Origin: an uncultured Clostridia bacterium
Lineage (GTDB): Bacteria > Bacillota > Clostridia > Christensenellales > UBA1242
Direction: 5' to 3'
NCBI GenBank assembly: GCA_934756675.1
Contig: CAKVLG010000002.1
Location: 339 to 64,338 of the forward strand
Length of the DNA: 64,000 nucleotides
Part shown: piece after piece, positions 5,901 to 50,000 of the stretch
How the letters are laid out: the number at the start of each line of letters is the position of its first letter
Position numbering within the stretch: position 1 is the stretch's first letter
The notes under the pieces: generated by a model
Database searches by the model: none
Told to the model about the DNA's origin: nothing
Seen by the model: only the letters and a program-made list of their open reading frames with translations
Position numbers and translations under genes: made by a program

Positions 5901-6626
5901 ACACCACTTGCAGTCATTACATACAATGAAAAAGATTATAAATTATCTCAACAATTAACAGGCGAGATTAAGTATGTAATGGGTGAGAGTGGTCCATCAA
6001 TGTTCTATGTTTATGTTGGCGCACTTACAGAGAATGTTCTTGAATGTCATTTTAAAGTTGCAACACAATTTGAGCTTTATGATGAAAACAAAGTGAAACT
6101 GGCAGATTATGAAAATGTTGTACTTGCAGTTCACACAGACGCAAATGGCGATAAATATAGCATGCTTTATATTATGGCAGAAGGTATGGAAATTCCTTTC
6201 TTTGTATATTACAGGGAAGAAGTAAATAAAATTACCATTACATTTGTTGAAAATGTTACAAAAACTCTCGATGTTCCAGCAAGCAAAGAAGCAATAGAAA
6301 ATAATGCGTTTTATGGTGACTTTGTTGGGGTAGTATCTGACGGTGTGGCTGGTCTTGTTTTGAATTTAACATATGCAGAACTTGGTTTAGATGGAAATGC
6401 GACATCTGTAACTATTTCTGCTATTGATATTCTTACCAATTTTATTGTGATGATTATGAATGGCGAGCAGCAGCCTACTATACTTTATATGGGTAATTCA
6501 ATAACACAGCCTATTGAAGTTGCAATTACTAATGATATGATTAACATGATGCTTGTTGATCCGTCTGCAACTACAAATGAAGAAATGCAACAATCGGCAA
6601 TTGGAATTACCATAATGTTTTCTTAA
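2955..6626 (+). CDS. Large surface lipoprotein with Big_3-like and tandem Ig-like (MBG/YDG-type) repeats
   Basis: Signal peptide plus lipobox (LFFAAC at Cys24). N-terminal domain with the pattern Y-GD-L...YSDNT. Three tandem repeats of about 75 aa with Y-x-G-x...NAG-Y-x-V motifs. Strong SD AAGGAGG. Confidence 0.8.
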   Translation: MKKKILAFFAIMLIIMPCLFFAACGKKDPTVTGIKVVINSKTFTGTQEDRTLTINYGDTLTNVVVKLMYSDNTEQNINMSELTVTDEHDILSKNIIPVGEYVLSFKYGEFDPISVTVKIVPTTIEKPTEKTTNFVYDGTAKTYLPEGFDDRLMSISGNIQTNAGEYTAVVTIKNEDYASWKDNTKTAVEFKWNINKKAIAVPEKSDKTYTYSGSELSVELLNIDRELMLVTGDETAVNAGKYSVYVELKSKTNYCWNSGADTMRDITINWEILKRELLEPTKVNKTYTYTGSEQTLELQGFVENAMAIENGKQTNAGSYTAVITLKDTINNKWITGANNVEIEWTIEKAISPKPATQPNSVIGTYDANKTLADYSAQLLSGYSWVDPTEVPICTKREYNAYYNADPENYEACQVKVIVELSKATPVAPAHAEINVEYKENLTLADVANRLADGFRFANLSEAITYGKTEYDAIYNPDKNNYLDVNTTVTVILTKTDIDFAITSNISKAFDAEPVIEPQTNYTGTNAVTVKYYENDGETELAAAPSDAGLYKVKVTVAGDDNHNATTVTADFYIKYDLSDSSKVRYSITHDELVYDGTPKTPAVTYLQVYIDGKTYDISADNFDVTYENNTDYLVSSYIIITGKNLAMNSVRSEFTINLPTIIENVKINNIDVDISGSYNGLATCSCDMTAENFVLTFDVKETYRNDNIRYIIQAKDKVGNVIVSTRYIENNTITLPKETATFSISAIKGTLYNQIFAVEMKLNSDNLSSYMSFLVPYYYVETIDINTNLNTVIVKENYDGNLAELIANYINNVNGHGYCSVITGYSFVSVVCDSNNTVATFTFADTATNKTHVINADIIDAREEICNVEYIELSDNINDTTEYLTLDENNTITVRNFSYMGNYLDIKFNSNVCQIELLNIRIEDMNTVTETVMTIENSCFFYLSQECTNDGIYTIRAYYKRVDGQVDKETYKDFKLDITFDKTPLAVITYNEKDYKLSQQLTGEIKYVMGESGPSMFYVYVGALTENVLECHFKVATQFELYDENKVKLADYENVVLAVHTDANGDKYSMLYIMAEGMEIPFFVYYREEVNKITITFVENVTKTLDVPASKEAIENNAFYGDFVGVVSDGVAGLVLNLTYAELGLDGNATSVTISAIDILTNFIVMIMNGEQQPTILYMGNSITQPIEVAITNDMINMMLVDPSATTNEEMQQSAIGITIMFS

Positions 6627-12275: not shown

Positions 12276-14192
12276 ATGTCTTTCTTTATGTCTGAATATG
12301 AAGATCCAAATGTAAACAATGAAGGTTCAAATAAAGAAAAGAAACCACAGGTTTCTTCGATTTCCGCTGAAGAATTGGCAGCCGCAATGGGCGTTGATGT
12401 TGAAGATTATAAGTCTGGAAAAACTAATACTCAAAAAATCGAAATTCAACCAATAAAAAGCCAAGAAAAGTCAGTTAGTGAAAAAAACAGAAATAAAGAA
12501 ACTGTTGAGATAGCAGACGAAATAGAAAAAATCATTAAACAAACTGAAAGCTCAGCTGACGCAGAAAAACAAAACAATACTAAAGAAGATCAAACCGAAG
12601 ATGACAAAGAGCTTGAAGACGTTGATTTTGACAATTATTTTAAAAAAATATTAAGAGAAGCGGAACAAGAATCTAACAATGAACAGAGTTCAGCAGCAGA
12701 AGATGGCAGCAGCAATGCTACACAAACTGTAACAAATAATGAACAAACTAATAATGATGTTTCTGGCGAAGACTCTGAAACACCAGTAACAATAGGTGAG
12801 ATTGAAATTAACCCGCAAAGTGAAGAAAAAAATGAGCCACAAATTGAAATTGCAGAAGATCAAAACAACCACCAGGGTGCAAGTGTAGAAACTGAAAGTA
12901 TTTCGCAAGGTGAAACATCTCAAGGTAATAAGTCGGAAGATTTAGTTGCTGGTCAAACTCATGATGATTTGGTTGCGAAAGAAATGCTAGCTGAAGAGCA
13001 AACAGTAACAGAAAATGTGCAGAGTAAGAATGATGAAAATAGTCATGTTAGTGCAATTTCTGCTGAAGAGCTTGCAGCTACAAAAGCTGCTTTAGATAAC
13101 GTTAAAGTTTCGGGTGAACAATATAGTAATGTTACGCCTATTACAGAACAAGAGATTAAAAGTGCAAAAAACACAGAAACTGCTAACAATGATGAAGAAG
13201 ATTATTTATCTGGCGAGAATGGAACGCTAGATGTTCCAGAAGATATGCTCAGCTCAAAGCAAGACAAAGAAGATGAAGAAAAACGTCGCCGAGACGAAGA
13301 AATGCTTTCGAAACTTGATGATGAGACAAGGCGTGAATACGAAGAACTTGCTAAAAAGTATTCGTACAATCCAATTGACGAAAACGATTCAACAGAATTA
13401 AAAACAGAAAATGTTGGTGGATATGATAAAGAATTCGATTTTTCTAAACGTACAGACATTAAAAAAGTATCGTTAAAAGGTAGTAAAAAGCCGCTCATTA
13501 TAACATTAATTGCACTTGCGATTGTTATTGCTTTTGTTTCACCGCTTGTTATTTTATATTTTATGACAAGACAACCTGTTGTCGTTTTAAACTCACTTAC
13601 CATTAGCGAAGATGTTGTTTGGCAATATGGTGGTGATAAACTAGATTTGACGAATGTGTCTTTGCTTGCTTCATATTCAGATGGAACGCAAAAATATATC
13701 TATTGTTCATATGAAAATATCTCTGAAATGTCAGCAAACATTACAGATGAATATATTTTGCCAAACATTGATGGTAGCGTTGTTGTATATTTTGCGCATG
13801 ATGGCAAAAGTGAAAAATTAACAATCAATATAATTAAACTCAATGCTGGCGATATTTCGGGGCATGTGTTTGGAAACAAACAACTAAAAACAAATGAATT
13901 GTTTGATATATCTAATATTTTGTTGTTAAGGGAATATTCGGCTAGTAGTGTTCAAGAGAATTTACCAGGAAGCTTTACAAAAACATTCTCAGCTAGCGAC
14001 TATGAATTGGTAGATTTTGTTATTAGTGATGGCACGTATTCAGAAACGCAAACATATAGCCAAATAAAAACAAGTGGCGGGTTTGTGTTTGACGCTGCTG
14101 GAACATATACTATTACCATTACATATGGTGTTGGAACAAGTAAAATAACAATTACAAGTTTTGAACTTGTTGTAACGGAAGTAACAGAATAA
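12276..14192 (+). CDS. Acidic low-complexity membrane protein with a C-terminal Big_3-like ectodomain (hypothetical)
   Basis: About 400 aa rich in E/D/Q/N/S, one TM helix (LIITLIALAIVIAFVSPLVILYF), then beta-rich domains with the pattern Y-GGD-LDL...YSDGT. The start is uncertain between 12276 and 12288. Confidence 0.7.
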   Translation: MSFFMSEYEDPNVNNEGSNKEKKPQVSSISAEELAAAMGVDVEDYKSGKTNTQKIEIQPIKSQEKSVSEKNRNKETVEIADEIEKIIKQTESSADAEKQNNTKEDQTEDDKELEDVDFDNYFKKILREAEQESNNEQSSAAEDGSSNATQTVTNNEQTNNDVSGEDSETPVTIGEIEINPQSEEKNEPQIEIAEDQNNHQGASVETESISQGETSQGNKSEDLVAGQTHDDLVAKEMLAEEQTVTENVQSKNDENSHVSAISAEELAATKAALDNVKVSGEQYSNVTPITEQEIKSAKNTETANNDEEDYLSGENGTLDVPEDMLSSKQDKEDEEKRRRDEEMLSKLDDETRREYEELAKKYSYNPIDENDSTELKTENVGGYDKEFDFSKRTDIKKVSLKGSKKPLIITLIALAIVIAFVSPLVILYFMTRQPVVVLNSLTISEDVVWQYGGDKLDLTNVSLLASYSDGTQKYIYCSYENISEMSANITDEYILPNIDGSVVVYFAHDGKSEKLTINIIKLNAGDISGHVFGNKQLKTNELFDISNILLLREYSASSVQENLPGSFTKTFSASDYELVDFVISDGTYSETQTYSQIKTSGGFVFDAAGTYTITITYGVGTSKITITSFELVVTEVTE

Positions 14193-21496: not shown

Positions 21497-22102
21497 CTAG
21501 TCTATAAATTCGTTTGTTGAGTCTAAGAAAACTTTTGGTTCTGGGCATTTTGATAGGAAAGAACCATATCTAGAATAAAATTCTTTATTTTCGTTTGTTT
21601 CGTTGTTTTTTGTGTAGCCAAGACCGGACAATCTTGAAAGATTGATTGTTTCGCTAGTTGCAGAGTTAAGGTGATTGCTTGTGCTAATATACAATTCTGT
21701 AACCCCACTTTGATAAGCAAGATCTTCCGCGTGACGAATAAGTGCTTCAAATTCAGACTTAGACATGTGGTGAATGTTGTATTCGGCTTGTGGTTTAGAT
21801 ACGATATGACGGATTAATCCATAACGAGCATTATTGTTGTGTTTGTCTGGGTGAGAAATGCAAAGTTCGAGCTTGCCAACAACAATGTTTTCGCAGTCTT
21901 CACCAATATATGCTGCAGTAATAATAAAAGCTGTTGTATCTTTCTTACCAAAATTAGTGTCTAGGCTGGCACATGTTGTAAAGATATTTCCGTCTTCGTT
22001 TTTGTGTATATGAAAAAGCTCGTCTGTTCTAGAATTTTTCATACGTCTTATGTAATTTTTTGCTTTAATTGATTTTATTTTTTTTGATAATATATTGTTC
22101 AT
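21497..22102 (-). CDS. Hypothetical protein, degenerate GNAT-like paralog (third in the array)
   Basis: Start set to the ATG at 22102 (SD GGAG 7 nt upstream, 4 nt after the preceding stop). Architecture is similar to the two upstream genes. Confidence 0.5.
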   Translation of the reverse strand: MNNILSKKIKSIKAKNYIRRMKNSRTDELFHIHKNEDGNIFTTCASLDTNFGKKDTTAFIITAAYIGEDCENIVVGKLELCISHPDKHNNNARYGLIRHIVSKPQAEYNIHHMSKSEFEALIRHAEDLAYQSGVTELYISTSNHLNSATSETINLSRLSGLGYTKNNETNENKEFYSRYGSFLSKCPEPKVFLDSTNEFID

Positions 22103-22106
22103 TTTT

Positions 22107-22754
22107 TTACTCCATTTCACTTATCTCACCAATTAGGGAAGAATCGATGTGTTCTTTGGCTTTTTCACTATCGAACAATGTAATTCTTCTCATAAACAAG
22201 CGTGGTGCGTCTTCGCCGTCTATTATATCATAAGTTAGGTTTTGACAACCATTTTTTTTATAAAAATTTATGTTTGCATCTACTTTTTTTGTCGGATCTG
22301 TTTTGCTTGGCAAAAATCTGTTGCTTGCATAAAGATATAGTGAGTCAAATCCGCGGTCACAGGCAAGACCACAAAGAAAAGTAAATATCGTTGAACCGAC
22401 ATCTTTGTCGCGATATTCTTGTTCAATGTAAATTGTAGATAGGTAATAAATAACTGGGCGATAATTGTTTTTGTTGTATTGTTCGCCAGTTGTTATTCGT
22501 GCAATTTGTTTAAAAATTGGCTCGCCAGTTTCTTCATCTTTTACTATTGTATAACATTTGAAAGTTGAGTATGTGTCGGTTTTATTTAATTGTTTGCGAT
22601 CCTCAATAATAACAAAATGTTCGTTGTGTTTTGTCTTTAAAATCGAGCCACAAAGCGTGCCGTCATAATTAACTAAACTCTCATAGAAAAATTTTTTTAT
22701 TGTGGCATTGTCGAATTCGTCTTCGCTGCCAACAAATAATGTTTTAGTTTGCAT
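22107..22754 (-). CDS. GNAT-like acetyltransferase-fold protein (second in the array)
   Basis: IYIEQEYRDKDVGSTIFTFL...FYKKNGC resembles GNAT motifs A and B. The start is uncertain between the ATG at 22754 and the TTG at 22796. Confidence 0.55.
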   Translation of the reverse strand: MQTKTLFVGSEDEFDNATIKKFFYESLVNYDGTLCGSILKTKHNEHFVIIEDRKQLNKTDTYSTFKCYTIVKDEETGEPIFKQIARITTGEQYNKNNYRPVIYYLSTIYIEQEYRDKDVGSTIFTFLCGLACDRGFDSLYLYASNRFLPSKTDPTKKVDANINFYKKNGCQNLTYDIIDGEDAPRLFMRRITLFDSEKAKEHIDSSLIGEISEME

Positions 22755-23430
22755 CTGCAATTGTCTCACTTTGATATCTTTCAAGTTTGTTTGCAATAAC
22801 AGAGCTGATTGCTTTTGATTCGTTTTCTATTTTGTTTCCAGATTGAAGTTTGTTAATAGCTCTGCCATATACTCTTGTTTGGTCACCTTGTTTTGTTTTG
22901 TATGTGCCCATAGTTTTAAAGCCGCAACTATTGAAAAATAATTCTGTTCTGTCTTGAGCATTTTCTTCGTCAAATTTGCCTTTGCATGTTTTGAAAGATA
23001 TGATAGGATCCTTTGGTGCATAGGCTAAAATATATTTGTAACCTTGCTTTTGTGCAAGTTCACGAGCGACCGATACCATGCGGGTGGCATAGTGATTGCC
23101 GCGATATAAATAATCGAGTTCAAGATTGATTATCGAAAGAACATCTTTGTCTTTTGTAGAAGAACGTAAGTTCATTTTTCCAAGTTCTTTTACAAAATAA
23201 CCTTCAGTAGCACTCTTTCTTATTGTGCAGACAGAAATAGTGGCAGCGTAACCTTTTTGAAACATTTGCTCGCTTATAAATAGCATAGCTATTTCTTTGT
23301 TTTTATTAAAAAACACATAAGAGCCGCTACGTGATCCTGAACTAATTGTTTCTAAAGGTTTTTGCCTTAAAGAATTTAATAGGAGCTTGTAGGCTCCTGC
23401 TGTATTATATTCGGTATTTGCAATTTTCAT
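22744..23430 (-). CDS. GNAT-like acetyltransferase-fold protein (first in the array)
   Basis: LELDYLYRGNHYATRMVSVARELAQKQGY...FFNSCGF. SD AAGGAGA. Confidence 0.55.
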   Translation of the reverse strand: MKIANTEYNTAGAYKLLLNSLRQKPLETISSGSRSGSYVFFNKNKEIAMLFISEQMFQKGYAATISVCTIRKSATEGYFVKELGKMNLRSSTKDKDVLSIINLELDYLYRGNHYATRMVSVARELAQKQGYKYILAYAPKDPIISFKTCKGKFDEENAQDRTELFFNSCGFKTMGTYKTKQGDQTRVYGRAINKLQSGNKIENESKAISSVIANKLERYQSETIADAN

Positions 23431-23543: not shown

Positions 23544-24053
23544 ATGAAAAGATTACTTTATTTTACTATTGTGTTTTTTGTGATTGGGGCGATATTGTTT
23601 TTCGCGCTCTATGCAAAAGAAACAAAAGTGATGTATGAAGAAGAGTTTGCTGTTAATGCGGAAGAGTTTGATATAGATAAAAATCTTATTATGGCAGTTG
23701 CGAAAACAGAAAGTGGGTTTGACGCAAAAGCAAAAAGTAGGGCGGGTGCTGTTGGTGTGATGCAGCTTATGCCAAGCACTGCAAAGTGGGTTTCTGATGA
23801 ACTTGGTATTGATTATTCAGAAGAAAAACTTGTAGATCCAAAGGTGAATATTAAGCTCGGTTCTTATTATCTTTCGCATTTAATAAAAAAATATAAAGAC
23901 ACCGTTTATGCTTTAGCATGTTATAATGCTGGCGAAAATATTGTGAAGAATTGGGGCTCGCCCGGAAGTTTAAAAATAGACGATATTAAGTATGTTGAAA
24001 CTCAAAATTTTGTTAAAAAAGTGCTATCTCAAAAACAAAAATATGATAAATAA
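23544..24053 (+). CDS. Membrane-anchored lytic transglycosylase (SLT domain)
   Basis: AKTESGF...GVMQLMP...CYNAG motifs. Start moved to the ATG at 23544 (MKRLLYFTIVFF anchor), because the track N-terminal extension overlaps the divergent gene. Confidence 0.8.
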   Translation: MKRLLYFTIVFFVIGAILFFALYAKETKVMYEEEFAVNAEEFDIDKNLIMAVAKTESGFDAKAKSRAGAVGVMQLMPSTAKWVSDELGIDYSEEKLVDPKVNIKLGSYYLSHLIKKYKDTVYALACYNAGENIVKNWGSPGSLKIDDIKYVETQNFVKKVLSQKQKYDK

Positions 24054-24312: not shown

Positions 24313-24341
24313 TTGCATATTAATTTTTGTTGTGCTATAAT
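24313..24341 (+). promoter_or_regulatory. Putative sigma-A promoter of the 337-aa / 2283-aa operon
   Basis: TTGCAT, 17-nt spacer, TGC-TATAAT (extended -10), 27 nt upstream of the ATG. Confidence 0.55.
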
Positions 24342-24367: not shown

Positions 24368-25381
24368 ATGAATAGACCTAAGCCACAAATTAATGTTACA
24401 GAGAAAGAAGAGATTTCTGAAAATGAAATCTCTGTTTCTTGTGATGAAAAGTTAAGTGATGATGGACTGTTTTCTGAGACAGCTGTTGCCTTAGATAAGA
24501 CCCCAAAAAAGAAAAGTGTTTTTTTAACAAAAACCTTTATGGTTAACATTTTTGTCGTACTTGCTCTCGCTATTTTTACAGGCGTTCAAGTAGGTCTTTT
24601 TTATCTTGACACCTTTGTTAAATCTTATGCTCCGCCAACTGTTGAAGAACAGACTTTGCGTGACGATACATTGGCAATCTACAACGCAAGCGTTGGAAAA
24701 TCTCCACTTGATGTTGGCGCTGTGAATGCTGCCATTGTTGCAGATTATATTTTGACAAACTCTACTTGTGTTGAAAAGACGACAATAGGTACAATCGTTG
24801 CTATGGGTGTAAAACAACAAATGGCTGCTAGTAAGAAAAGAGTTGGTAATCGTATTTTTTCTGAAAAGATATCTACTGGTGTTATTAGTGTTGGTAACCG
24901 TTTTTATCATACACTAGAAAGTGACCTTTTTGAATTTTATTCTGGCACAAACGTTACAATAACTGGCGCTACTTGGCCTAGTTCACCAAGCTACACTTGG
25001 AATTACGACACGTACATTGAGCATTTTAGAAGTAAGCCAGAATACTTTATCAATTATATAATTTCAAGCAAGACTGTTCAAGCGTCTTCAATTTCTTCGC
25101 TTCCTAATGGCAACTTTTTAATCTCGCTTGATCTTGACACCGTTTATAGTGTTCTAAATTATTGCTATGAAATTCGTGAAACTTCTGGTTCTACAAAATT
25201 TCCAAACTTTAAGGCTGTGCATCTCGATATGATTATTGACAGCAGTTACAAAGTTATTGAACTTAAAGTGGAAGAAAATTATGACGTTGCAGTTGTTCAA
25301 CTTGGTGGTGGGTATGTAGATACTCATGCTTCCATTGTCGATAAATTTTCTTACAAGGGGGTAGTGATTGATGAAGCGTAA
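24368..25381 (+). CDS. Hypothetical single-pass membrane protein (cytoplasmic N-terminus, beta-rich ectodomain)
   Basis: SD AAGGGG. TM helix FMVNIFVVLALAIFTGVQVGLFYL. The 3' end overlaps the next gene by 11 nt. Confidence 0.7.
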   Translation: MNRPKPQINVTEKEEISENEISVSCDEKLSDDGLFSETAVALDKTPKKKSVFLTKTFMVNIFVVLALAIFTGVQVGLFYLDTFVKSYAPPTVEEQTLRDDTLAIYNASVGKSPLDVGAVNAAIVADYILTNSTCVEKTTIGTIVAMGVKQQMAASKKRVGNRIFSEKISTGVISVGNRFYHTLESDLFEFYSGTNVTITGATWPSSPSYTWNYDTYIEHFRSKPEYFINYIISSKTVQASSISSLPNGNFLISLDLDTVYSVLNYCYEIRETSGSTKFPNFKAVHLDMIIDSSYKVIELKVEENYDVAVVQLGGGYVDTHASIVDKFSYKGVVIDEA

Positions 25382-28300
25382 ACATAAAAAGCTCAAAAAG
25401 ACCTTTCTTGTGTATGTCTTAACATTTTTGGTTGTTACATTTTGTAGCGCTTTTTTAACAGTTACCGTTAACTACGACAGCTACTTTTTAAATAACTCAT
25501 CACTATTCCTTTCTAACACTCAAGAGACAGGTGACTCTTCGGCACTCTCTAGCACTGTCGCCAGTCTTATGAGTATGCGTGGCGGTGTTGTTAATGTTGT
25601 TATGGCTGCTGGTAACGAAGCGGGCGACACACTCGACGTCGATGCTAGCATAAAACTTAGAATGCAAGGCGGAATAGAAAATATTGAAGTTGGCGCTGAT
25701 GTTATTTTGTATTTCAATAACGAACCATTTAGCATTTCTGCTACTTATATTGGTGGTTGGCTATATCTCAGTGTTAATGACAGTAATTTTAAAATGCAGG
25801 TTAATAGCTTAGCACAAAGTGTCCAATCGATACTTGGGCTTATTGGTATGAACATGGGCGATGCTGGCAGCCTTGGAAGTATGTTCGATATGAATGCACT
25901 TATGGGGCTTGCGTCTGACATGAAAGAAGTTGCTACAGATTTTGGTACAAAAATGGAAATTTCTAGCGACAATGTTAACGTTTCTATGAACGTTGATAAT
26001 GACTTTATGTTAAAGTCTATCGATATTGCAAATGTTAGCGTTGGCGATTATTTTGCTCATGGCGAAATTGTTATGTCAGATATTAACTCTAGCAACATTT
26101 CAATCGAACCAGCAAGTAATGAAAATGAATATAACGATGTTACACCAGCAATAAGGCTTATTAATGGTATAATGTCTATCCCAACGGGTGACTTTTCGGC
26201 ATCTGTTGTTTCTAACCTTGGGTTTGAATCTAAGTTTGATGTTTTGTATGACATGAGCGCGCAAGGCGGGAAAATTAGTACTCGTGCTGGTCAAATCGAT
26301 TTTGATACATATATTATTCGCAACAATGTTTACTTCAATTCTGGCAATGCTCGCATTAAGGTTGAAGATTTAAAGACGTATGATTTCACAAAAATATTGT
26401 TTGAGATTTTGGAAAAAGTCGGCGTAAACTCTAGCAGTGACATAAAAAGTCAACTTGACTTATCTAAGATTAGTGACATAAATTTCTCTGAAATTGACCT
26501 TGGAAAATTCTTTGATTTGATAAGTGTTGACGATGACAAACTAACAATCTCAGCTTACGGCAAAAACTTTAATTTCGAATTTGATGGCGATAGAATTAAA
26601 AAGTTTTATATTGACAATTTAGTATCGATTAATTTCGACTACTCAGCAACAGAACTAGTATTCGAAAACTATGGCTATGTTGCAATTAGTGATATGGAAT
26701 GGGTGATTAAACCAATCACCGAATTTTTGACTACCAAAAAAATGAGCTTTGATATTTATGCAAATATCGATGGCGAAGACTATGAGCTCAATGTTCGTCT
26801 TGATTTTATAGAAAAAAATGCTATTGAAATTATTGGCGAGTTGTTTGGCAAAAGCTTTGATATAATCGTTGACGAGCAATATATTTTACTTAACATCGGT
26901 GGCGAAAGAACAAAAATAGACAAGTCGAGATTGACTGAAACAATTTTGGAACTTGCAGACAAGTATGCGTTTAGCAAAGAAATTAATTTCTCGTTTGATT
27001 TAAATACAGTTATAAATAGCTTACTCCAATTAACATACGCCGACCAAAACAGCTTGACGTTTGAAAATAACGATTTTGAAATCTCTTATAGTGCAGCTGG
27101 CACAATTTCACTTATTGGCAATCTTCTTGGCAAAAACGTTAATATACTTCTAATTAAAGAAGACAGCGCGCGCGATGTTCGTTATTATAACCACAACCAA
27201 TTTGCGGACTTTATGTTCACAAGTGATTTAGCAAAGAATACTAAGAAATATATAGAAAGCAGAGAATATAACATAGATTTATCTGCTAGGATTGACGGCA
27301 AAGATGTTACCGCTGATGTTTATGCAAATCTTAACGATAATTATTATGCGGCAAGGGTAACTTATAGCGGCGAAACAATTTCTGTAATCTCTGATAATGA
27401 CACATATTATATTGCTTATAGGCAATTTAAGTTCTTTGGTAGCATGGAAAATGCTATGAATATGCTTGCTGGGTTCTTGGCAGAGCAAAACGGCAACGAC
27501 AAATTTGCATCTTTTGTTTCTGACTTAATGCTCAGTATCAAAGATAAATATGCTGGCACAGATATATTAAAACTTCTCACAGAAACTCGAATTGGCAAGA
27601 TCAAAATCACAGACAACGTGTTTGAACTTAACATGATTAAGTTTGCTGGTCTTGAAGATCTTTTCGACCTAGAAAAACTAACAATTGGTCTTGAGATTGA
27701 AAATAAAAACATTCACAAGATTTATGCAAGTTATGGTGACATGAATGCAAGCATTTTAATTAAAAATGAGCAAGTTCAACGCTTAACAGATAGTGAAAAA
27801 CAATCATACACCGTTGACCTTGACAAGCTTGTTCGTGTTGGCAAAAATGTTTATGACTACGCTAAAAATGGCGAATATATTTTGCAAGTTGATATAACTT
27901 ACGATAACTATAGCATCAGCGGAAAAGTTGCCGTTATTGACAATGAAATTAAAACAGATTTATTAGTTGTGGCAGGGGAATATGAAATCGGCTTAAAACT
28001 TATAGATAAAATGCTTTATGTCAACTTCGAAAACCTTGCAATTAGTGCTAAACTTGGCGATGCAGATAAGATTATTGCTCTTCTTGAAAAGCTAGGTATA
28101 GACACAAACAAGATTAAGGAAACATTGAATGGCATTAAGCCAGAACTTCCAGAAATCAACGATAAAACACTTGTAGACATGCTTGCGAAAGTTGATTTGG
28201 ATAAATTTATCTTCTCTTGCAGCGACCAAACTTATATTCTTGGTTATGGCGATTATAAGCTTATAGTTTCAAGCGAAAACGACATGATAACTGGCGTAAG

Positions 28301-31300
28301 CACTAATATGCGCGGTGTCAATGCAAACATTCAACTTATTGATGATTTTGCAATTGATTTGACTGGCGAATACTTGTCGCTTGAAAACTTGTTGTCACTC
28401 GCTGAAAATGAAATTGAATATATAAAATCAAAAGATTACGCATTTGAAATAAGACTTATTTATGGTGACTATGATATATTTGGTCACTTGTACTATGGCG
28501 ATAGCGGTTGGTCTGCCGAGCTCGAAACTTTTGTTTCTGGTAAATTATTAAAAATCAAAATTATTCAAAAGAATATATATATTGATTTCGATGGCTTCAA
28601 ACTTAAAGCAGACAAAGATAGCTATGTTGAAGTTATGCAAATGGCTGAAAAATATGTCGGCATAAAACTTCCAGATTTAAACAATTTGTCAGTAGATAGT
28701 GTTTTAGATTTATACAATCAAATCAAAGCTAAGCTCGAAGAGTTTGGTGTGACGATTCCAGCTTTGAGTAAAGACAATTTAAAGAAAAACGACACAAATA
28801 TCAATGATGTTTTATCAAAACTCTATATTGATAAAATGTCTGGTGGCTACAAAGTAACTTATGACGGGGTAGAAGTTGTTGTTTTGGAAAATGACAACAA
28901 GCTTTCTTCGCTTGAAATAATAGCAAATGGCTTGCAATTATATATCCAAAAAACAACAAGCAAAGATGTTGACATAAACGATAAATATCTCGATGGCACA
29001 AAGCTTTTGCAAGTGTTCGATAAAACAATAAAGACAATCGAATCTAAATCGATGTCTGGTACAATTTCTGTCGACTTTGTGTTCGAAAATATTGTTCATC
29101 AAGCAAACATTTTATATAATATCAACTTTGAAAATCTAGACGATATAAGAGCAAAACTTGAAGTCGAATTTAAAGGCTTGACGGCAGAAATTGTTTATAT
29201 TAACAAAATGATTTACTTTGATGTTGTTGGACTTAAGTTCCAAGCGGGGCTAAGCGATTATGATAATATTGCCGAGTTCGTGAAGTCTAGGTTTGGCATT
29301 GATATTAGCCTAGATGAATTAAAAGGTAAATCTCTTAACGACTTGCATTTTGACTTTGTTGAAAATGCCGAATTTAATGATGATTATGTAATTTTCAACT
29401 TCAAAAATGACCTTAACCTAAGGCTTGATTATAATGGCGACAAGATAAAACAATGCAACTTTAGCCAGGGTACAACAAATGCTAAAATTTCGCTTGTTCC
29501 AATGCAAAAAATAACTATTGACGAAGTTGCATCAAACAAATATTTGTCTTATACAAAATTGTTTGATTTGGCAGATAGCGTTCGCGACTTTATAAATAGC
29601 AGGCAATTTAACGTCAACGCAAAAGCTCTTGTTTATGAAGATGTAAACAAAATCCGTTATAATGTTGACATTGGTTTAGCAATTGATGCACTTATCAGCG
29701 GCAACATTCAAGCTCTTGGCAACGCTTCTGTTTATGACGGAAATGGTAAGCCACTCTACACAAATGTTCGCGCAGCTCTCGAAGATCAAAAGATTTATGT
29801 AGATTTCGATGGTCTAAGGCTTTCGATCAGTCAAGATAAATTGCGTGAAATTATGGTTATCGCACTAAGTGCACTTGGCATTGACACAAGTTCAATTCCA
29901 TGGCTTGGCGCAGTTGATGATGACATGAAATTTGTTCCAGATAACCTTAAGAACTTTATGCCAGTTATGAACTTTGATACTCTTGGCATGTTGCGTATTA
30001 TTAAGTCGATGAATATCACTGGCAACCATTTCGAGATTGTTCTCGACGGTGCACTTGTCGTAAACGGCGCTGAAAAGGACATGAGAGTTGCAATCGACTT
30101 TGCTGGCAACAAAATCAACAAACTTAAACTGTACAACATCTATTCTGGCGTTTCACAAACCGAATATTTTGATTTAACAATCAACTTTAACGAGTTTGAA
30201 GGCGTTGAACAAATCGAAAAAGTTAACGATAAAGGTCGCGGATTTATCGACATTTCAGACTCTAGCGAACTTATCAGAGCGTTTATCAATACTTCAGAAC
30301 TTGATAATTATACATTGAATGGTAAAATTAAATTCAACATTTCAAACTTCAGCATGAACGCACCAATCTCAATCACTGTTAAAAACTTGCCAAACGGCAA
30401 AACAGTTGCTCAAATTTCTGTTAAAGAAATTCCTATGATTGCGGGCGTCAATGGTTCGTTTGCGGGCGACCGTGAATTCAATGTCTATATGTATGACGAC
30501 ATTGTTTATCTATATAGAGTTGATGACGAAAACCACTTGTTCTTCCGTGAAAAGGTAGAAAAGAAACTTGCGCTCACAATAGATCAATTCATGGGCGATA
30601 TACTCAAATATATTTGTGAATTTGGTCTTGGTTTTAAAGAAGGCGGCTTGATAATGAATGCTATTAACAAAGCACTCAATAACAAACGTCCAGATAATGA
30701 GCCAATTGATATGAGTAATGTATTGCTTGGCTATAACAAAGAAGGTAGCAATGCACACAAACTTATCTTGAACATGAAGGAAATTGCCTATAACGATGAC
30801 CTAGACACCATGATTGTTACACTCTACACAATCAACAATGCAATAACTGGCAACAAGGATTACTTGTATAAACTTGCATTTGCATTAAACATTGATGTTG
30901 GCATAAACATGTCCCTCACAACAGACGATTTGACTCTTGATTATGCAAACAAAAATGCCAATGTAAACGCAGCCCTTGATTATATCAACGGTTATGGATA
31001 CAAGATTGGCGAATGCTATAAGATTAGTGATGGCAAAGCAAACCTTGAATCTAACATTCAATACACAGCTAACTTCTATGATGGTTCAAACATGGTAAGG
31101 TCGGGCAAATATAACGCTAAGCAAACACTTGACCTTTCAGCTATAACAAGACCAGACGGTGTTGTTAATGGAATAAAATATTCATATACATTTAGTGGTT
31201 GGTATCTTGATGCTAATTTCGAAACATTGGCACCTAGCACAATGCCAACGCATGACATCAATTTGTACGCTAAGTTCGAAAGAACGGCGTGGAGATATGT

Positions 31301-32222
31301 ATCGTTCGACACGCAAGACGAGTCGCAAACGCTTGACGATATATATGCTCCAGTTGGCACAACATTTGTTTTACCAACACTTAAAAACAAGTTTGTTAAC
31401 CAAGCAAGAAAGACTTATGAATACGCCTTTGATTATTGGACTCTTAATGGCGAAAGGGTAGCAAGTGGTGTTGTTTATAACCAAAGCGAAACACTTGTTG
31501 CGATATATAAACTTATTGCTGTCACAGACCAAAAGTTTGTGTTAACAATTGTTTCTGGCGGCAAGGTGGCTATTAAAACAAGAATAATAATGAACTCAGC
31601 CTTTGATCCATATACTCATGACGGAGTATTAAGCACAACATTGTTCTATAGCGATGATAGCTTCAAAAACCAAGTTTTGGAATTTATTATGCCAGAAAGC
31701 GACTTAACAATTTATGCTAGAAATAAGTATACAATTTCGTTTACAGATGCATACGGCTTAACAATTGCTAGCGTAACAGAATACGAAGGCAACACTGTAA
31801 GCCTTGAAACATTGAGCAAATCATATACAGATAATGGCAAACAAGAAAAACGCGTGTTCTATAAGTTCAATGGATACATATATAATAACACGCTATACAC
31901 AGATTCAATAACCATGATGCATGGTGGCGGAACGCTTGCTACATCGTGGTCAGAGAGCTACAAATATTACTACACTGTTTCGTTTAATATAAAAACAGCA
32001 ACAGGACGACATGTGTATTACTATGGTGGTGCTCCAAACTCATATAGGGTGCTTGAAGGCGAAAAAATTAACGCGCCTACAAGTGGACCAACATGTTACT
32101 ATATCTTGTTCAAAAAGAGATATTTGACCTTCAAAGGTTGGACACTTAATGGCAATACTGTTACACAATCTACAACAATGCCTAGTGGTGGGGATATTGT
32201 GTTGAAGGCAGTATGGAACTAG
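25371..32222 (+). CDS. Giant N-terminally anchored surface protein: about 8 repeated modules of roughly 190 aa plus C-terminal Listeria-Bacteroides (InlB B / Flg_new-type) repeats
   Basis: ATG at 25371 (SD GGGGG 9 nt upstream), whereas the track starts at the TTG at 25368. TM helix TFLVYVLTFLVVTFCSAFLTV. Recurrent motifs are x-Y/F-I-x-S-K/R-x-Y and iY-v/i-dFdG-x-k-l-k-a. The C-terminus has FSGWY, FDYWT, FNGYIY and FKGWT repeats. Confidence 0.8.
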   Translation: MKRKHKKLKKTFLVYVLTFLVVTFCSAFLTVTVNYDSYFLNNSSLFLSNTQETGDSSALSSTVASLMSMRGGVVNVVMAAGNEAGDTLDVDASIKLRMQGGIENIEVGADVILYFNNEPFSISATYIGGWLYLSVNDSNFKMQVNSLAQSVQSILGLIGMNMGDAGSLGSMFDMNALMGLASDMKEVATDFGTKMEISSDNVNVSMNVDNDFMLKSIDIANVSVGDYFAHGEIVMSDINSSNISIEPASNENEYNDVTPAIRLINGIMSIPTGDFSASVVSNLGFESKFDVLYDMSAQGGKISTRAGQIDFDTYIIRNNVYFNSGNARIKVEDLKTYDFTKILFEILEKVGVNSSSDIKSQLDLSKISDINFSEIDLGKFFDLISVDDDKLTISAYGKNFNFEFDGDRIKKFYIDNLVSINFDYSATELVFENYGYVAISDMEWVIKPITEFLTTKKMSFDIYANIDGEDYELNVRLDFIEKNAIEIIGELFGKSFDIIVDEQYILLNIGGERTKIDKSRLTETILELADKYAFSKEINFSFDLNTVINSLLQLTYADQNSLTFENNDFEISYSAAGTISLIGNLLGKNVNILLIKEDSARDVRYYNHNQFADFMFTSDLAKNTKKYIESREYNIDLSARIDGKDVTADVYANLNDNYYAARVTYSGETISVISDNDTYYIAYRQFKFFGSMENAMNMLAGFLAEQNGNDKFASFVSDLMLSIKDKYAGTDILKLLTETRIGKIKITDNVFELNMIKFAGLEDLFDLEKLTIGLEIENKNIHKIYASYGDMNASILIKNEQVQRLTDSEKQSYTVDLDKLVRVGKNVYDYAKNGEYILQVDITYDNYSISGKVAVIDNEIKTDLLVVAGEYEIGLKLIDKMLYVNFENLAISAKLGDADKIIALLEKLGIDTNKIKETLNGIKPELPEINDKTLVDMLAKVDLDKFIFSCSDQTYILGYGDYKLIVSSENDMITGVSTNMRGVNANIQLIDDFAIDLTGEYLSLENLLSLAENEIEYIKSKDYAFEIRLIYGDYDIFGHLYYGDSGWSAELETFVSGKLLKIKIIQKNIYIDFDGFKLKADKDSYVEVMQMAEKYVGIKLPDLNNLSVDSVLDLYNQIKAKLEEFGVTIPALSKDNLKKNDTNINDVLSKLYIDKMSGGYKVTYDGVEVVVLENDNKLSSLEIIANGLQLYIQKTTSKDVDINDKYLDGTKLLQVFDKTIKTIESKSMSGTISVDFVFENIVHQANILYNINFENLDDIRAKLEVEFKGLTAEIVYINKMIYFDVVGLKFQAGLSDYDNIAEFVKSRFGIDISLDELKGKSLNDLHFDFVENAEFNDDYVIFNFKNDLNLRLDYNGDKIKQCNFSQGTTNAKISLVPMQKITIDEVASNKYLSYTKLFDLADSVRDFINSRQFNVNAKALVYEDVNKIRYNVDIGLAIDALISGNIQALGNASVYDGNGKPLYTNVRAALEDQKIYVDFDGLRLSISQDKLREIMVIALSALGIDTSSIPWLGAVDDDMKFVPDNLKNFMPVMNFDTLGMLRIIKSMNITGNHFEIVLDGALVVNGAEKDMRVAIDFAGNKINKLKLYNIYSGVSQTEYFDLTINFNEFEGVEQIEKVNDKGRGFIDISDSSELIRAFINTSELDNYTLNGKIKFNISNFSMNAPISITVKNLPNGKTVAQISVKEIPMIAGVNGSFAGDREFNVYMYDDIVYLYRVDDENHLFFREKVEKKLALTIDQFMGDILKYICEFGLGFKEGGLIMNAINKALNNKRPDNEPIDMSNVLLGYNKEGSNAHKLILNMKEIAYNDDLDTMIVTLYTINNAITGNKDYLYKLAFALNIDVGINMSLTTDDLTLDYANKNANVNAALDYINGYGYKIGECYKISDGKANLESNIQYTANFYDGSNMVRSGKYNAKQTLDLSAITRPDGVVNGIKYSYTFSGWYLDANFETLAPSTMPTHDINLYAKFERTAWRYVSFDTQDESQTLDDIYAPVGTTFVLPTLKNKFVNQARKTYEYAFDYWTLNGERVASGVVYNQSETLVAIYKLIAVTDQKFVLTIVSGGKVAIKTRIIMNSAFDPYTHDGVLSTTLFYSDDSFKNQVLEFIMPESDLTIYARNKYTISFTDAYGLTIASVTEYEGNTVSLETLSKSYTDNGKQEKRVFYKFNGYIYNNTLYTDSITMMHGGGTLATSWSESYKYYYTVSFNIKTATGRHVYYYGGAPNSYRVLEGEKINAPTSGPTCYYILFKKRYLTFKGWTLNGNTVTQSTTMPSGGDIVLKAVWN

Positions 32223-32360: not shown

Positions 32361-32495
32361 TTCAGAATACGCCGCACCTTGACTTTCTTTACTCGTCTTT
32401 CACTTAAACAAGAACGCGGATAGGAAACCCTTATCCGCAACCTTGTTTAAGCAAAATCCATCGTAAATCTAAGTCAATCTGCTGCTTTATACTAC
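32361..32495. repeat. Long imperfect hairpin made of two inverted copies of a roughly 35-nt repeat
   Basis: Core stems CTTAAACAAG / CTTGTTTAAG and GCGGATAGG / CCTTATCCGC, extended outward by GACTT/AAGTC, TTTAC/GTAAA and GCCGCA../..TGCTGC pairings. Confidence 0.7.
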
Positions 32496-33487: not shown

Positions 33488-34642
33488 ATGGAACAAACAA
33501 TAAAAAGTCTTTTGATAGAAAAATATGGTTTTTCGGAAGCTGAGGCAGACAAGGTTATTCGCATTTCGCGTATGCGTGATGCCGAACTTGTTGGTGACAA
33601 ACTTGACAAAATTTTTAAATTTCTTGACATAGGGTCAGACAAAAATACTCAAAAATCTATTATTACCAGGTGGCCACAAGTGTTAAACACAAGTGTGGAA
33701 GCTTTTGCAAGCAAGGCAGAGTTTTATAGCAATGAATATGGCATCAACAAAACAAAGTTTGCTAAAATGGCTTGCAGAAATTTCTCTGTTATCAACTCTA
33801 GCGAAAAGAAAGTAAAAGAGATAGAAAAATACTATACCGAAAAGTGGCACATGACAAAGGAAGAGTTTGTTAAAAAAATGTTGCGTGTGCCAGCGCTTGT
33901 TGGGTTTCCGCCAAGCACAATAGATAGCAGATTTAACACTTTGAAAGAAGAATATGACATGCAAGAATACGAGTTCGAAAAAATGGTTAAAAGTGCTTCG
34001 AACTTTCCAGTTATGAGTGTGGAAGATATCCATGACTTGCAAGAATTTTACGCACGCGAATTTGGAATAACAAAAGGCGATTTCCGCAGAATGCTTATGT
34101 CAATTAAGCCACTTACTTATGGAACTAATAAAGTGTTAAACGGATATAAAAAAATCGCTGAAAAACACGATATTTCGGCTGAAGAGTATGGCAGCATGCT
34201 TGTTAAATGTCCAACACTTTTGGGGTTTAGCCCTGCAATGATAGATGCTAAATTCAAAAAGTATGCAGAGCTTGGCATTGACGATGAGAGCCTTGTGCAC
34301 TATCCAAGGGCACTTGTTCCAAACCCAGACTGTTTGAAAATGCGATATATGTTCGGCAAAATTCATGGTTTGTCTGATACCGACTTTTTGAATCGCGGTT
34401 TTATGTGTAGCGAGAAACGACTTTTTGCAAGGTCGATGTACATGCGAGAAGTTGGTTTGTCTAAGAGTTATTTGTATTACAGCGAAGGTAAGTTCTTAAA
34501 GCGCACTGGTGTTAGCAGCAAAACGCTTGAAAAAGAAAATCAATATACAAGTGCCGTGAAAAAAGCTATTTGCGAAAGATATAACAATATATTTGGCACC
34601 AATGTTGAATTAACAGAAGGGGAACTAAATTATGAAAGTTAG
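33488..34642 (+). CDS. Helical-repeat protein resembling the mTERF family (hypothetical)
   Basis: Recurrent units of about 30-35 aa of the type G-[FI]-[ST]-x3-[FI]-x2-[MI]-[LI]-x2-x-P-x-[LV]-[LV]-x-[FT]-[SP]-x3-[IL]-x3-[FL], for example WPQVLNTSVEAFASKAEFY, VPALVGFPPSTIDSRFNTL and CPTLLGFSPAMIDAKFKKY. Confidence 0.45.
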   Translation: MEQTIKSLLIEKYGFSEAEADKVIRISRMRDAELVGDKLDKIFKFLDIGSDKNTQKSIITRWPQVLNTSVEAFASKAEFYSNEYGINKTKFAKMACRNFSVINSSEKKVKEIEKYYTEKWHMTKEEFVKKMLRVPALVGFPPSTIDSRFNTLKEEYDMQEYEFEKMVKSASNFPVMSVEDIHDLQEFYAREFGITKGDFRRMLMSIKPLTYGTNKVLNGYKKIAEKHDISAEEYGSMLVKCPTLLGFSPAMIDAKFKKYAELGIDDESLVHYPRALVPNPDCLKMRYMFGKIHGLSDTDFLNRGFMCSEKRLFARSMYMREVGLSKSYLYYSEGKFLKRTGVSSKTLEKENQYTSAVKKAICERYNNIFGTNVELTEGELNYES

Positions 34643-47003: not shown

Positions 47004-50000
47004 TTAGAACATGAATCCGTTACGAAGAGGACTGTTATTTGGCATAGAGTTAATAACTTTATCAGCAACCAAATAACAACCTGCAATAACAACACCAGCA
47101 ATACCAAATGTTACAACTGTTAAAATGGCAGAACCAGCGATTGCTACAACACCAATAGCACCAGAACCAACAGGCAAAGCTTGCCAACTACTGTTACCAT
47201 AGTAGATGTGCTGGTTACCATTGAGTGAAACATTAAGATCACAAGGAGATTCCGCTGTATTAAACGCTTCAACATCTGCCATGTAGTTAGCGTGGAACGA
47301 AAGTTCGTTTGCAATAGCACCGGTCTTTGACGTATCTGATGTAAAGATGTTACCCATGATTTCTGAGAAACCATAGTTCTTATCCATACGTGAAGCATCC
47401 AAGTGACCAGAAGTATCAACCGAGTGAGTGTCGAGTCTATTTCTAGTGCTAAATGATACGCATTTAACACTCTTTAGGTAAGAATAACCCTTGCTTGCCC
47501 ACCAGAGAATGTCGCCAACATGATCGATAGTAAAGTATGGTACAGGGAAGATGCCTACCATTTTAAAGTGCATTATAGGCATCCAAACCTCTTGCCATGC
47601 TTCGTTATATTGTGATCTCTTGTGAACTTTTATTGTTGCAGTAATATTAACTGAATCGTTAACAGTGTAGGTGAGATTGAGCATGTCGATATAGGAATCC
47701 ATGTAGCCTTTAATGTTAAGACCTGAATTAAAGTTACTACCACTATGTATTTGATTTTTTATTTCTTTATAGAATTGAATGATGTTGTATTGATCATATA
47801 CAAAGTAGTTATTAAGATCACTATCGTTTTTGAAGTTTGTACCAAACATGATATTGAAGAATGAGTAGAGGTTTTTAACATTCCTTATTCTTGTTTTACC
47901 AAGACTATTTTTGAAGCCAGCAAAGTTAACTTTTCCAGTTGAATGATATTCTGCCACTGGGTTAGTTGCATAGTTTGTGATGTATGTTAAAAGACCAGTC
48001 AAGAACAAATATGTTTGAGTATAAAGCGTTTCTAAGGTTTCGTTTGAATTATCGTATTTTTGTTCAATATTCCAGAATTCATTCCAACCAACCCAACCTT
48101 TATCACTAATAATATTAGTGTTATTTTGGAAGTAGGTTAGAAGTGAATTTTTGCAACCCTTAGATAGTTTTATATAATCGGTAGTTGTTGGATGTTCGGC
48201 ATTTGAATAATACTCATTTAGTAGATATTCAAGCGTATCAACAAATGGTTTAACATTTCGAACAACAGTGAAGTAATAGTTATCGAAGTTTGTCATTAAT
48301 ACGTCATACGATGAAATAAATTGTGCTGTACTCTTAAAGATATCTCTGCTAAATACAGGAATTTTGGCTGTTGTTTTGCCATCTTTTGTAACAGCGCCAT
48401 TGTATGTTTGAAGTGTTTTAAATGTTCCGTCCAAACTTCTATGGGTATCTTTGTCGGCATAATTGCCGTTTTCATAATCAACTCTGTTACCACCAGTTGA
48501 TTTATTTTCAGTTTCACCAGCACCAGAATAGGTGACAGATGAAGTGATTTGTTGAACTGTGTATAGGTAATTTAAGTTAACTATTAAATTAAGGTTCTTT
48601 GGAGCATCGTTTGTTTCACTTAGGTTTTGATAGAAACCAGTGATAAATGCCGTCGATGTTGTTAAGCTATTAAGGTCAGGTATATTTTTACCAGCTTTAT
48701 AGAACTCTTCGGCATAAAGTGTGTTGTGATCCATATCGTCTGCATAAAGTTCCATAACACCAGTTTGCGCACAATCTAGCACGCCTTCGTTTAGTTGATT
48801 TTGAACTTTGATGATAGGGAATGTACCATTTTCACTAATAAGAAGTATTTTTACTCTTATTGTTTTTGTTTCAAAGTCGACATAAAGTTTTACGCGTTTT
48901 TGCGCATCGTTGCCATACTCGTTGATATCTTTAATGTTGCTGTTAATACCAAGTTGAATTAGACCAGGTTTTAACATATATATCATGTTGTTAAATGAAC
49001 ATGTAAGCTTATTATCGAGATTAGAAGTATTGGCTGGCATTACGTAATTTAGCATTTGCGATAGCTGAGTATTACCATAGAACGATGTGATATTATACAC
49101 TTTTACTTGACCAGATGTAGATTTCGCATTGAACAAGCCGTCCTCGGTTTCGCTGTAAGCGACATAAGGAATAGAATTGCCATCAAGATCTTTTACTTTG
49201 TTACCGTTCTTGTAGAGAAGAACTTTGCTAGTTATGCTCTTTTCAAGGTCAAGGGCACCAAGAGGAATACGTGCTGGAACGATTAATTGATTACCATTTG
49301 TATCTTGTTTTGTGTATACATATGGGTTACCTTGTTTTGGATATCCACTTCCATCAAGATCGGTATTAGGTGTTATAGTAATTCTGTCTTCTCCATTCAT
49401 TATATAGCCGCGTTTAATTTGGTTAACTTTATCGGTGTATGCAATGAATGAGGTAGTGCTATTACTATCTGCACCATTGATTACCGAACCTTCCATTTCT
49501 GCAATTCTAAGTTCTACAACATATGTTTGAACGATATAGAACGCATTGATTGAAACGTCATCTTTGAGCCTATAGAGTTTTAGGTAGTTAACTTTGTTTA
49601 ACTTGCCTTCATCACCAATTTTAATAACTTTGTTATATAAGAATTTCGCGTCGTTTGTGTTATATAGCGTTGTGACTTCTTTAAGTGAAAAATCGTGACC
49701 AAGTGTTCCACTATACGTGCCGCTGTCAGTAGCGTAGTCACTGTTAAGATTTTCTTTTGCAAGTTTATCGAGTGTATTGTTGGAAGTCCAGCTGATTACA
49801 TTTATACCAACGCCTTTTGTATCGACAAGCTTGCGGTTATTCAAGAAGTCGTTACTTTTTGCGGTTAGGTAACCATTGTATCCAATGAAGTTGAAACCAG
49901 GGTAAGCTTCTACCTGAGAGTATGCGTTAGAACCAACTTCAACAATAAGTGTACCATGAACTGTACCGATGTTTACGTTGTTGTCATAAACTCTATCTGG

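Follow-up and report, generated by a model that had tools for sequence, protein, structure and literature searches.

A family of giant modular, probably surface-exposed proteins with an obligatory small partner in uncultured Clostridia, with LolA-like folds predicted for both

Introduction

Giant surface proteins shape the attachment of gut bacteria, their spacing and their contact with hosts and food particles. In Gram-positive bacteria the periscope surface proteins, which include SasG, the Rib/alpha-like proteins and the SHIRT-repeat proteins, carry a long tandem array of folded domains between an anchor and a distal domain, and their repeat number varies through tandem duplication. In diderms, proteins of the AsmA-like, TamB and YhdP type combine an N-terminal transmembrane anchor with a very long, beta-rich extracytoplasmic body. 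The gene pair described in this paper lies in a 64,000-nt stretch of contig CAKVLG010000002.1 from an uncultured Clostridia bacterium, the whole of which is referred to below as the window, and its larger product shares features with both groups. This giant protein of 2283 amino acids (aa), the window protein, is rooted by an N-terminal transmembrane helix and leads through a long array of modules, variable in number among its homologues, to a distal repeat region. The smaller product, a membrane protein of 337 aa, is encoded directly upstream.

A preliminary description, drawn from the DNA alone, had read the pair as a two-gene envelope operon whose large product is built from about eight modules of about 190 aa. 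The analysis reported here places the pair in an undescribed, widespread family of giant repetitive surface proteins, composed of modules with a predicted LolA-like topology and accompanied by an obligatory partner for which a similar fold is predicted. We tentatively favour the view that the pair is a self-contained cassette of uncultured (gut) Clostridia which may build a membrane-rooted, length-tunable extracellular fibre.

Gene pair and module array

The two-gene arrangement, with its 11-nt overlap, was recovered as open reading frames (ORFs) at window positions 24368-25381 (small partner gene, 337 aa) and 25371-32222 (giant gene, 2283 aa), both on the plus strand. The overlap runs from the ATG of the giant at 25371 to the stop of the small gene at 25381. 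An alternative TTG start at 25368 would give a giant of 2284 aa; the ATG is favoured because the closest database protein is also 2283 aa long. Hydropathy analysis gave exactly one hydrophobic segment in each protein, in agreement with the single N-terminal transmembrane helix claimed earlier for the large one. In the giant this anchor spans aa ~13-35 (25404-25472, plus strand), within a hydrophobic segment at aa ~12-36, and is preceded by a Lys/Arg-rich stretch. The N-terminus and transmembrane helix are 65% identical to those of P0005, one of four homologues used for comparison (P0002 to P0005, 35-40% identical to the window protein), which makes this the most conserved part of the protein. 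Neither a lipobox nor a conserved Cys was found across the giant family. With one hydrophobic segment apiece, preceded by positive residues, both proteins are predicted to be oriented with the N-terminus in the cytoplasm.

A self-BLAST of the whole giant returned the identity match only. Comparison of 120-aa chunks with the whole giant gave offsets that cluster near multiples of ~190 aa (187, 198, 205, 212, 386-406, 551-603 and 780; best E = 6e-6 and 5e-5), and a module hidden Markov model (HMM), started from five segments and refined with the homologues until convergence, placed eight modules in a gapless tiling of aa 59-1604. Both the period of ~190 aa and the count of about eight modules were therefore confirmed, with the canonical array ending at aa 1604 and not reaching to about aa 1720 as had been proposed. 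A control HMM built from only two distant homologues gave matches at all eight positions, seven of which outscored all of 200 shuffles (the highest of these reached 8.1 bits). Identity between the modules of the window protein is only 17-25%, and the giant gene contains no tandem repeat at the DNA level, which together mark the array as ancient.

All modules are encoded on the plus strand. Module 1 (aa 59-259, 25542-26144) is adjacent to the membrane and is 49% identical to that of P0005, and modules 2-4 (aa 260-442, 443-617 and 618-820; 26145-27827) are one-to-one orthologues of modules 2-4 of P0002. Module 5 (aa 821-1007, 27828-28388) is of the type that expands in other members, as judged by module orthology. 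Modules 6-8 (aa 1008-1212, 1213-1397 and 1398-1604; 28389-30179) complete the HMM-defined array, and of these modules 7 and 8 are conserved. The module-opening motifs pointed out in the preliminary description are found at aa 626, 829, 1016, 1221, 1406 and 1638; the sixth (AFINTSELDNY) belongs to a divergent terminal module.

This terminal module (aa 1605-1900, 30180-31067, plus strand) was delimited from family tails and by hhalign; of 149 family tails, 133 contain it. It has no Pfam or PDB sequence match. Its hhalign alignment with the module profile is colinear, covering 166 columns from the opening helix on, with E = 6.5e-4 and a probability of only 28%, and from these comparisons we conclude with moderate confidence that aa 1605-1900 represent a divergent ninth module.

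The remaining part of the giant (aa ~1901-2284, 31068-32219, plus strand) is a region of about five Flg_new (Listeria-Bacteroides) repeats of ~75 aa each (PF09479, TIGR02543). The preliminary description had already recognised Flg_new-type repeats here. TIGR02543 scored 36 bits on the whole giant against a cut-off of 20.95. PF09479 scored 33.7 bits, in two stretches, against a cut-off of 27 when aa 1912-2284 (373 aa) were scanned alone, and 25.1 bits, under the cut-off, on the whole giant. Internal offsets of 88, 149-152 and 313 aa in the chunked BLAST suggest about five copies. An LPXTG motif ([LIVS]PX[TSA]G) occurs nowhere in the giant, which also has no C-terminal hydrophobic tail, its sole hydrophobic segment being the N-terminal one.

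Family members and the conserved partner gene

Only six giants and fourteen small proteins came out of a word-indexed search of 5.8 billion sequences. An exhaustive search with the module profile found 531 representative proteins at E <= 1e-3, 185 of them at E <= 1e-30, each representative standing for a cluster at 50% identity in the searched library. The best 150 of these 531 matches are 667-6,215 aa long, and none of ten matches that were looked up bears a name. By sequence the modules themselves match nothing in Pfam, NCBIfam or the PDB, in keeping with the earlier remark that the module is not a named domain; Pfam searches with each module separately at E <= 10 returned scattered noise only. 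Literature searches on tandem LolA-like domains and on giant Gram-positive LolA-like proteins gave no description of the family.

Family analysis was carried out on 153 members of 1,065-6,215 aa. An N-terminal transmembrane helix is present in 133 of the 153, and the first module mostly begins at aa 50-70. Members carry 2-17 modules, most often 7. About 90-110 of the family tails also match the Flg_new region of the window protein, and Flg_new is the only recurrent Pfam domain in the family. In one subgroup (P0106, P0146, P0154, P0117, P0127 and others) an extra 300-550 aa lie between the transmembrane helix and module 1, tails extend up to 2,372 aa, and total lengths reach 6,215 aa.

In all 11 loci in which the contig includes the 5' end of the giant gene, the small gene directly precedes it and has the same orientation. 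Six of the 11 paired loci had been retrieved with the terminal module of the giant alone, independently of the small protein. In metagenome scans, a narrow alignment of the terminal module gave 7 loci and an alignment of the small protein gave none. Neighbours other than the small gene vary between loci, and none of them is conserved.

The small protein consists of a variable cytoplasmic tail (aa 1-53), a transmembrane helix (~aa 54-84, with the hydrophobic segment at ~aa 50-82) preceded by a Lys/Arg-rich stretch, and a conserved ectodomain (~aa 90-337). The N-terminal tail is missing in a second clade. Identity to the orthologues is 59-66% over the alignment and 67-71% in local BLASTP alignments. 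Towards the closest homologues the small protein is far better conserved than the giant (67-71% against 35-40%). Its invariant motifs include YF(I/L)NYI(I/V)SSxT and TS(G/N)S. The small protein belongs to no Pfam family, has no credible PDB sequence match by profile, and shows no profile-profile similarity to the module of the giant.

Predicted folds and a possible carrier function

Modules 5 and 6 were modelled with AlphaFold2 from an alignment of 27 module pairs (predicted local distance difference test score, pLDDT, 83; predicted template modelling score, pTM, 0.68). In the model each module consists of an N-terminal helix, six antiparallel strands, three to four helices and five more strands, giving an 11-strand sheet. 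An independent check on this fold was obtained by mean-field direct coupling analysis (DCA) of 1,172 module copies from the 153 family members. Of the 120 strongest couplings, most correspond to neighbouring strands of the model (b1-b2, b2-b3, b3-b4, b4-b5, b5-b6, b9-b10 and b10-b11). The N-terminal helix (H0) is coupled to b1, b4, b6, b9 and b10, and the central helix (H1) to b3, b5, b7 and b9; coupling of both helices to strands in both halves of the sheet is consistent with their packing onto it, as the plug of LolA would.

A Foldseek search of the PDB with the two-module model returned LolA (2w7q, 9gtx) and RseB (2v43) with a probability of 1.0 and a TMt of only 0.27-0.32, and these were the only matches that made sense geometrically. 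The count of 6+5 strands and the helix-to-sheet couplings agree with the 11-strand unclosed barrel and helical plug of the LolA-like superfamily. The top PDB matches by E value (~1e-5) were beta sliding clamps. These were rejected, and since their TM-scores are ~0.1 and their root-mean-square deviations (rmsd) 26-28 Å, we read them as chance likenesses in 3Di pattern between repeated units of helix plus meander, and not as a shared fold. A library of viral structures gave no match above a TM-score of 0.18. At the level of sequence, one distant family member has a sub-threshold Pfam match to LppX_LprAFG (E = 0.0067), and the window proteins have no match to the LolA-clan Pfam families (LolA, LolB, MucB_RseB, LppX_LprAFG and others) even at E <= 10. 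A match to a well-characterised family, which the preliminary description had named as grounds for giving up its reading, was thus found at the level of the fold only, to LolA and RseB with TM-scores of ~0.3. The model weakly suggests a LolA-like topology for the module, a resemblance of fold that does not fix its function.

For the small protein, AlphaFold2 with a 14-sequence alignment predicted a disordered tail, a long transmembrane helix and a confident beta-rich ectodomain (pLDDT 78.5, pTM 0.71). Foldseek matched this model to LolA from four genera, RseB, LolB, EPDR1 and Staphylococcus aureus SAOUHSC_02783, with probabilities up to 1.0, E values from 6e-5 to 1e-3, rmsd of 6.7-11 Å and a TMt of 0.36-0.44, which is under the usual TM-score line of 0.5. 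The ectodomain may therefore be LolA/RseB-like, again as a weak structural likeness.

These likenesses raise the possibility that the pair relays hydrophobic cargo, the LolA-like modules and the partner each binding acyl chains, whether of lipoproteins, glycolipids, lipoteichoic-acid anchors or further lipids. Loading from the bilayer would fall to the membrane-anchored partner, and the module chain would store the cargo or hand it outward through the wall. Known members of the LolA-like fold bind acyl chains, both proteins match LolA, LolB, RseB, EPDR1 and LmcA-type structures with Foldseek probabilities up to 1.0, and the sub-threshold LppX_LprAFG match in one family member points the same way, as do the strong conservation of the partner and the presence of a separate orthologue at each module position. 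Transfer of cargo from LolA to LolB goes mouth to mouth (PMC13078400). No conserved interface between modules through which cargo could pass was found. TM-scores are low, at 0.27-0.32 in the case of the module and 0.36-0.44 in that of the partner; neither is linked by sequence profile to the LolA-clan Pfam families, and the coevolution of H0 and H1 with both halves of the sheet suggests that the cavity is filled. A range of 2-17 modules would be odd for a defined relay, and the hosts are Clostridia that we assume to be monoderm, with no second membrane to supply. A relay of this kind thus appears unlikely. The more specific proposal of monoderm lipid or lipoprotein trafficking, in which a LolA-like loader feeds acylated cargo into a covalent carrier chain that stores it or moves it through the thick wall to the surface, in the manner of a bucket brigade, is less likely still.

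Evolution of the array

The window protein was compared module by module with P0002 to P0005. The window protein and P0005 each have 8 modules, P0004 has 10, P0003 has 11 and P0002 has 12. For each of modules 1-4 and 6-8 in the window protein there is a single best counterpart in P0002 (its modules 1-4 and 10-12). The fifth module type is present in one copy in the window protein and in P0005, three copies in P0004, four in P0003 and five in P0002, and two of the copies in P0003 are 82% identical to each other. These sequence comparisons indicate that module number changes through duplication of the fifth module type.

Identity to P0005 is unevenly distributed along the protein. Beyond the N-terminus and module 1, whose values are given above, it is 26-36% in modules 2-6, 44% in module 7, 50% in module 8, 51% in the terminal module and 37% in the Flg_new region. 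Conservation is thus concentrated at the base and at the distal end, with a variable and expandable middle.

A variable number of modules would also suit a non-adhesive spacer or scaffold that fixes a distance or gives order to an outer layer, for example a capsule or S-layer, or the space separating cells or surrounding a spore. Its Flg_new tip would bind a component of the cell itself and not a foreign surface. Such a role would be in keeping with the uniform payload of the family, which is unlike the varied heads of adhesins, and with position-specific modules that are ancient, sharing only ~20% identity inside one protein. An SLT lytic transglycosylase with a membrane anchor, encoded directly upstream in the clade of the window, could also be taken to favour it; however, this gene and all other neighbours are missing from other clades, and the pair has no consistent link to genes for an S-layer, a capsule or sporulation. 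We consider a purely spacing role rather unlikely, while noting that the present data do not separate it from a fibre with a binding end.

Probable independence of the modules and a tentative model

Contacts between modules were sought by DCA of 988 adjacent module pairs. No inter-module coupling was found among the top 85; the best ranked 86th, and the couplings were scattered and formed no strand ladder, with intramodule hairpins reaching scores of 2.4 in the same matrix. The power of this analysis is limited, with an effective number of 955 sequences for 360 columns, and interfaces may be specific to position. The lack of an inter-module ladder, taken together with the helix-to-sheet couplings, argues for autonomous domains on a string and against one continuous open-groove sheet.

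This result bears on the suggestion in the preliminary description that the protein could be an envelope-spanning scaffold or a conduit. A scaffold is compatible with the data, and a conduit finds no support in the coupling analysis. A conduit would be an analogue of the bridge-like lipid transfer proteins AsmA, TamB and YhdP, with an N-terminal anchor and a continuous beta-groove spanning the envelope. Features reminiscent of such proteins are the N-terminal transmembrane anchor, the great length and beta-rich nature of the body, and sub-repeats in which five or six strands lead into crossing helices. Set against this, coevolving strand pairing between neighbouring modules is lacking, helices are coupled to both sheet halves within each module, no AsmA or DUF490 Pfam match was found, and TamB and VPS13-type structures are not among the top 50 PDB matches. 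The length of the giants is moreover highly variable and their hosts are presumed to be monoderm. We regard a bridge of this kind as highly improbable.

The extracellular fibre that we tentatively favour would be built as follows. Both proteins would insert into the membrane through one transmembrane helix each, with the N-terminus in the cytoplasm. The giant would reach outward as a chain of nine independently folding modules, each a helix-plugged antiparallel beta-sheet of LolA-like topology, with about five Flg_new repeats at its far end exposed at or past the surface of the cell wall. At ~4 nm per module, the fibre would measure tens of nm overall. The conserved transmembrane helix and module 1 would form the base, and the small partner, whose LolA-like ectodomain would lie at the same face of the membrane and may contact this base, would hold, assemble or regulate it. 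The poorly conserved middle modules would serve as a shaft whose length has been altered in evolution by duplication of module type 5. Conserved modules 7 and 8, the terminal module and the Flg_new repeats would make up the working end, the tip of which presumably has an adhesive or binding role.

Several points weigh against such a fibre. No homologue of known function was found, and the extracellular location of the giant, outside the wall, is itself something we infer. Small-x-small motifs suggest that in some members the N-terminal segment may be a cleaved signal peptide; because the segment is highly conserved, it is probably kept rather than cleaved. The distal payload is uniform across the family, being Flg_new only, whereas typical adhesins bear varied heads. 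The existence of a separate orthologue for every module position is a hint that roles may differ by position and go further than passive spacing. By analogy, a LolA-like fold in both proteins would also fit a carrier of hydrophobic ligands, and the structural likeness between module and LolA is weak (TMt <= 0.32).

Putative transcription signals and neighbouring genes

The extended -10 promoter placed at 24313-24341 in the preliminary description is present, as a promoter-like site, by direct reading of the sequence (plus strand). It comprises TTGCAT (24313-24318), a 17-nt spacer and the extended -10 element TGcTATAAT (24333-24341), and it was not listed by a consensus scan because its -35 element fits the consensus in only three of six positions. 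Direct reading also showed an AAGGGG ribosome-binding site upstream of the small gene, past the extended -10. The giant gene has a ribosome-binding site of its own, AAGGGGG, placed 9 nt ahead of the ATG and still within the end of the small gene. A terminator scan identified a terminator-like hairpin downstream of the pair (32416-32438, plus strand). The scan also reported, on both strands, a 9-bp perfect inverted repeat (AGAGATTTC…GAAATCTCT) at 24409-24433, within the 5' end of the small gene; this is probably a chance match.

The flanks of the window contain chromosomal housekeeping genes (MurG, GyrB/A, DHDPS, GluRS, PolA and DegV). The membrane-anchored SLT lytic transglycosylase is encoded at 23544-24053 (plus strand, E = 1.8e-31), 314 nt upstream of the pair. 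Genes for SLT transglycosylase, YgjV and an mTERF-family protein stand beside the pair only in the clade of the window, and locus L001 shares the SLT arrangement. A functional link between the pair and the upstream transglycosylase was considered and set aside, as the adjacency is limited to this clade. The mTERF-family protein (PF02536, E = 2.9e-16; 384 aa, 33488-34642, plus strand) belongs to a family that is unusual in bacteria, and its gene and YgjV are syntenic downstream of the pair in L001 and L002. On the minus strand, positions 21497-23430 hold three successive, partly overlapping ORFs of 207-229 aa; at the matching position L001 has three genes, one of them GNAT-like.

In another clade an IS200-like/helix-turn-helix (HTH) protein is encoded upstream of the pair and an AATase-like protein downstream, and others have different neighbours again. 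In a second clade the pair is preceded by the gene for a conserved cytoplasmic protein of ~255 aa (L004, 9237-9995; L005, 9215-9991; L006, 9249-10004), whose stop overlaps or abuts the start of the pair. This protein has no Pfam match; inspected by eye, its C-terminus resembles DnaA-C/HTH and its N-terminus is IS200-like, and it may be a regulator.

Three further ORFs in the window were noted. A second giant ORF, of 5660 aa (47004-63986, minus strand), ends in a C-terminal hydrophobic anchor. It does not carry the 190-aa module, and its only Pfam match, to Flg_new_2, is sub-threshold. Positions 2955-6626 (plus strand) encode a protein of 1223 aa whose N-terminus (…FFAACGKK…) resembles a signal peptide or that of a lipoprotein, and positions 12276-14192 (plus strand) encode one of 638 aa; neither belongs to a Pfam family.

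Comparison with known systems

The members checked among the 531 clusters have neither a name nor a Pfam family for the module. Module and partner merit family definitions of their own, which would allow the annotation of hundreds of "hypothetical" giant genes in gut metagenomes. If the pair does build a fibre, Gram-positive surface architecture would gain a new building block and a new design, one of two components rooted at the N-terminus. If the modules instead carry hydrophobic molecules, the pair would show how a monoderm enclosed by its wall moves such molecules outward.

The giant resembles the periscope proteins in overall plan and differs from them in several respects. The domains of periscope proteins are Ig-like sandwiches, whereas the modules of the giant are predicted to be alpha/beta and LolA-like. 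Periscope stalks are encoded by near-identical DNA repeats, through which their length can change rapidly, whereas the giant gene has no tandem DNA repeat and its modules are ancient and 17-25% identical. Periscope proteins are held by a C-terminal LPXTG anchor, and the giant by an N-terminal transmembrane helix; the giant gene has, in addition, an obligatory partner gene. Unlike the AsmA-like proteins, TamB and YhdP, the giant offers no evidence of a continuous groove, no corresponding Pfam match and no outer-membrane partner, and its length varies. With the InlB B-repeat/Flg_new surface proteins it shares its C-terminal ~380 aa, which carry such repeats above curated cut-offs; here, however, the Flg_new region caps an undescribed module array, and there are no leucine-rich repeat, GW or LPXTG parts.

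The closest likeness in predicted fold is to LolA, LolB, RseB and LppX-LprG, with which the module would share its N-terminal helix, its 11-strand antiparallel meander and its plug-like helices, which coevolve with the sheet. It differs from this superfamily in having no sequence-profile similarity to it and TM-scores of 0.27-0.44. To our knowledge, the LolA-like half-barrel is not a domain type known to form stalks. Members of the LolA superfamily are single-domain periplasmic or lipoprotein carriers or sensors, whereas here nine predicted copies (2-17 across the family) are fused into one anchored chain in what is presumed to be a monoderm bacterium.

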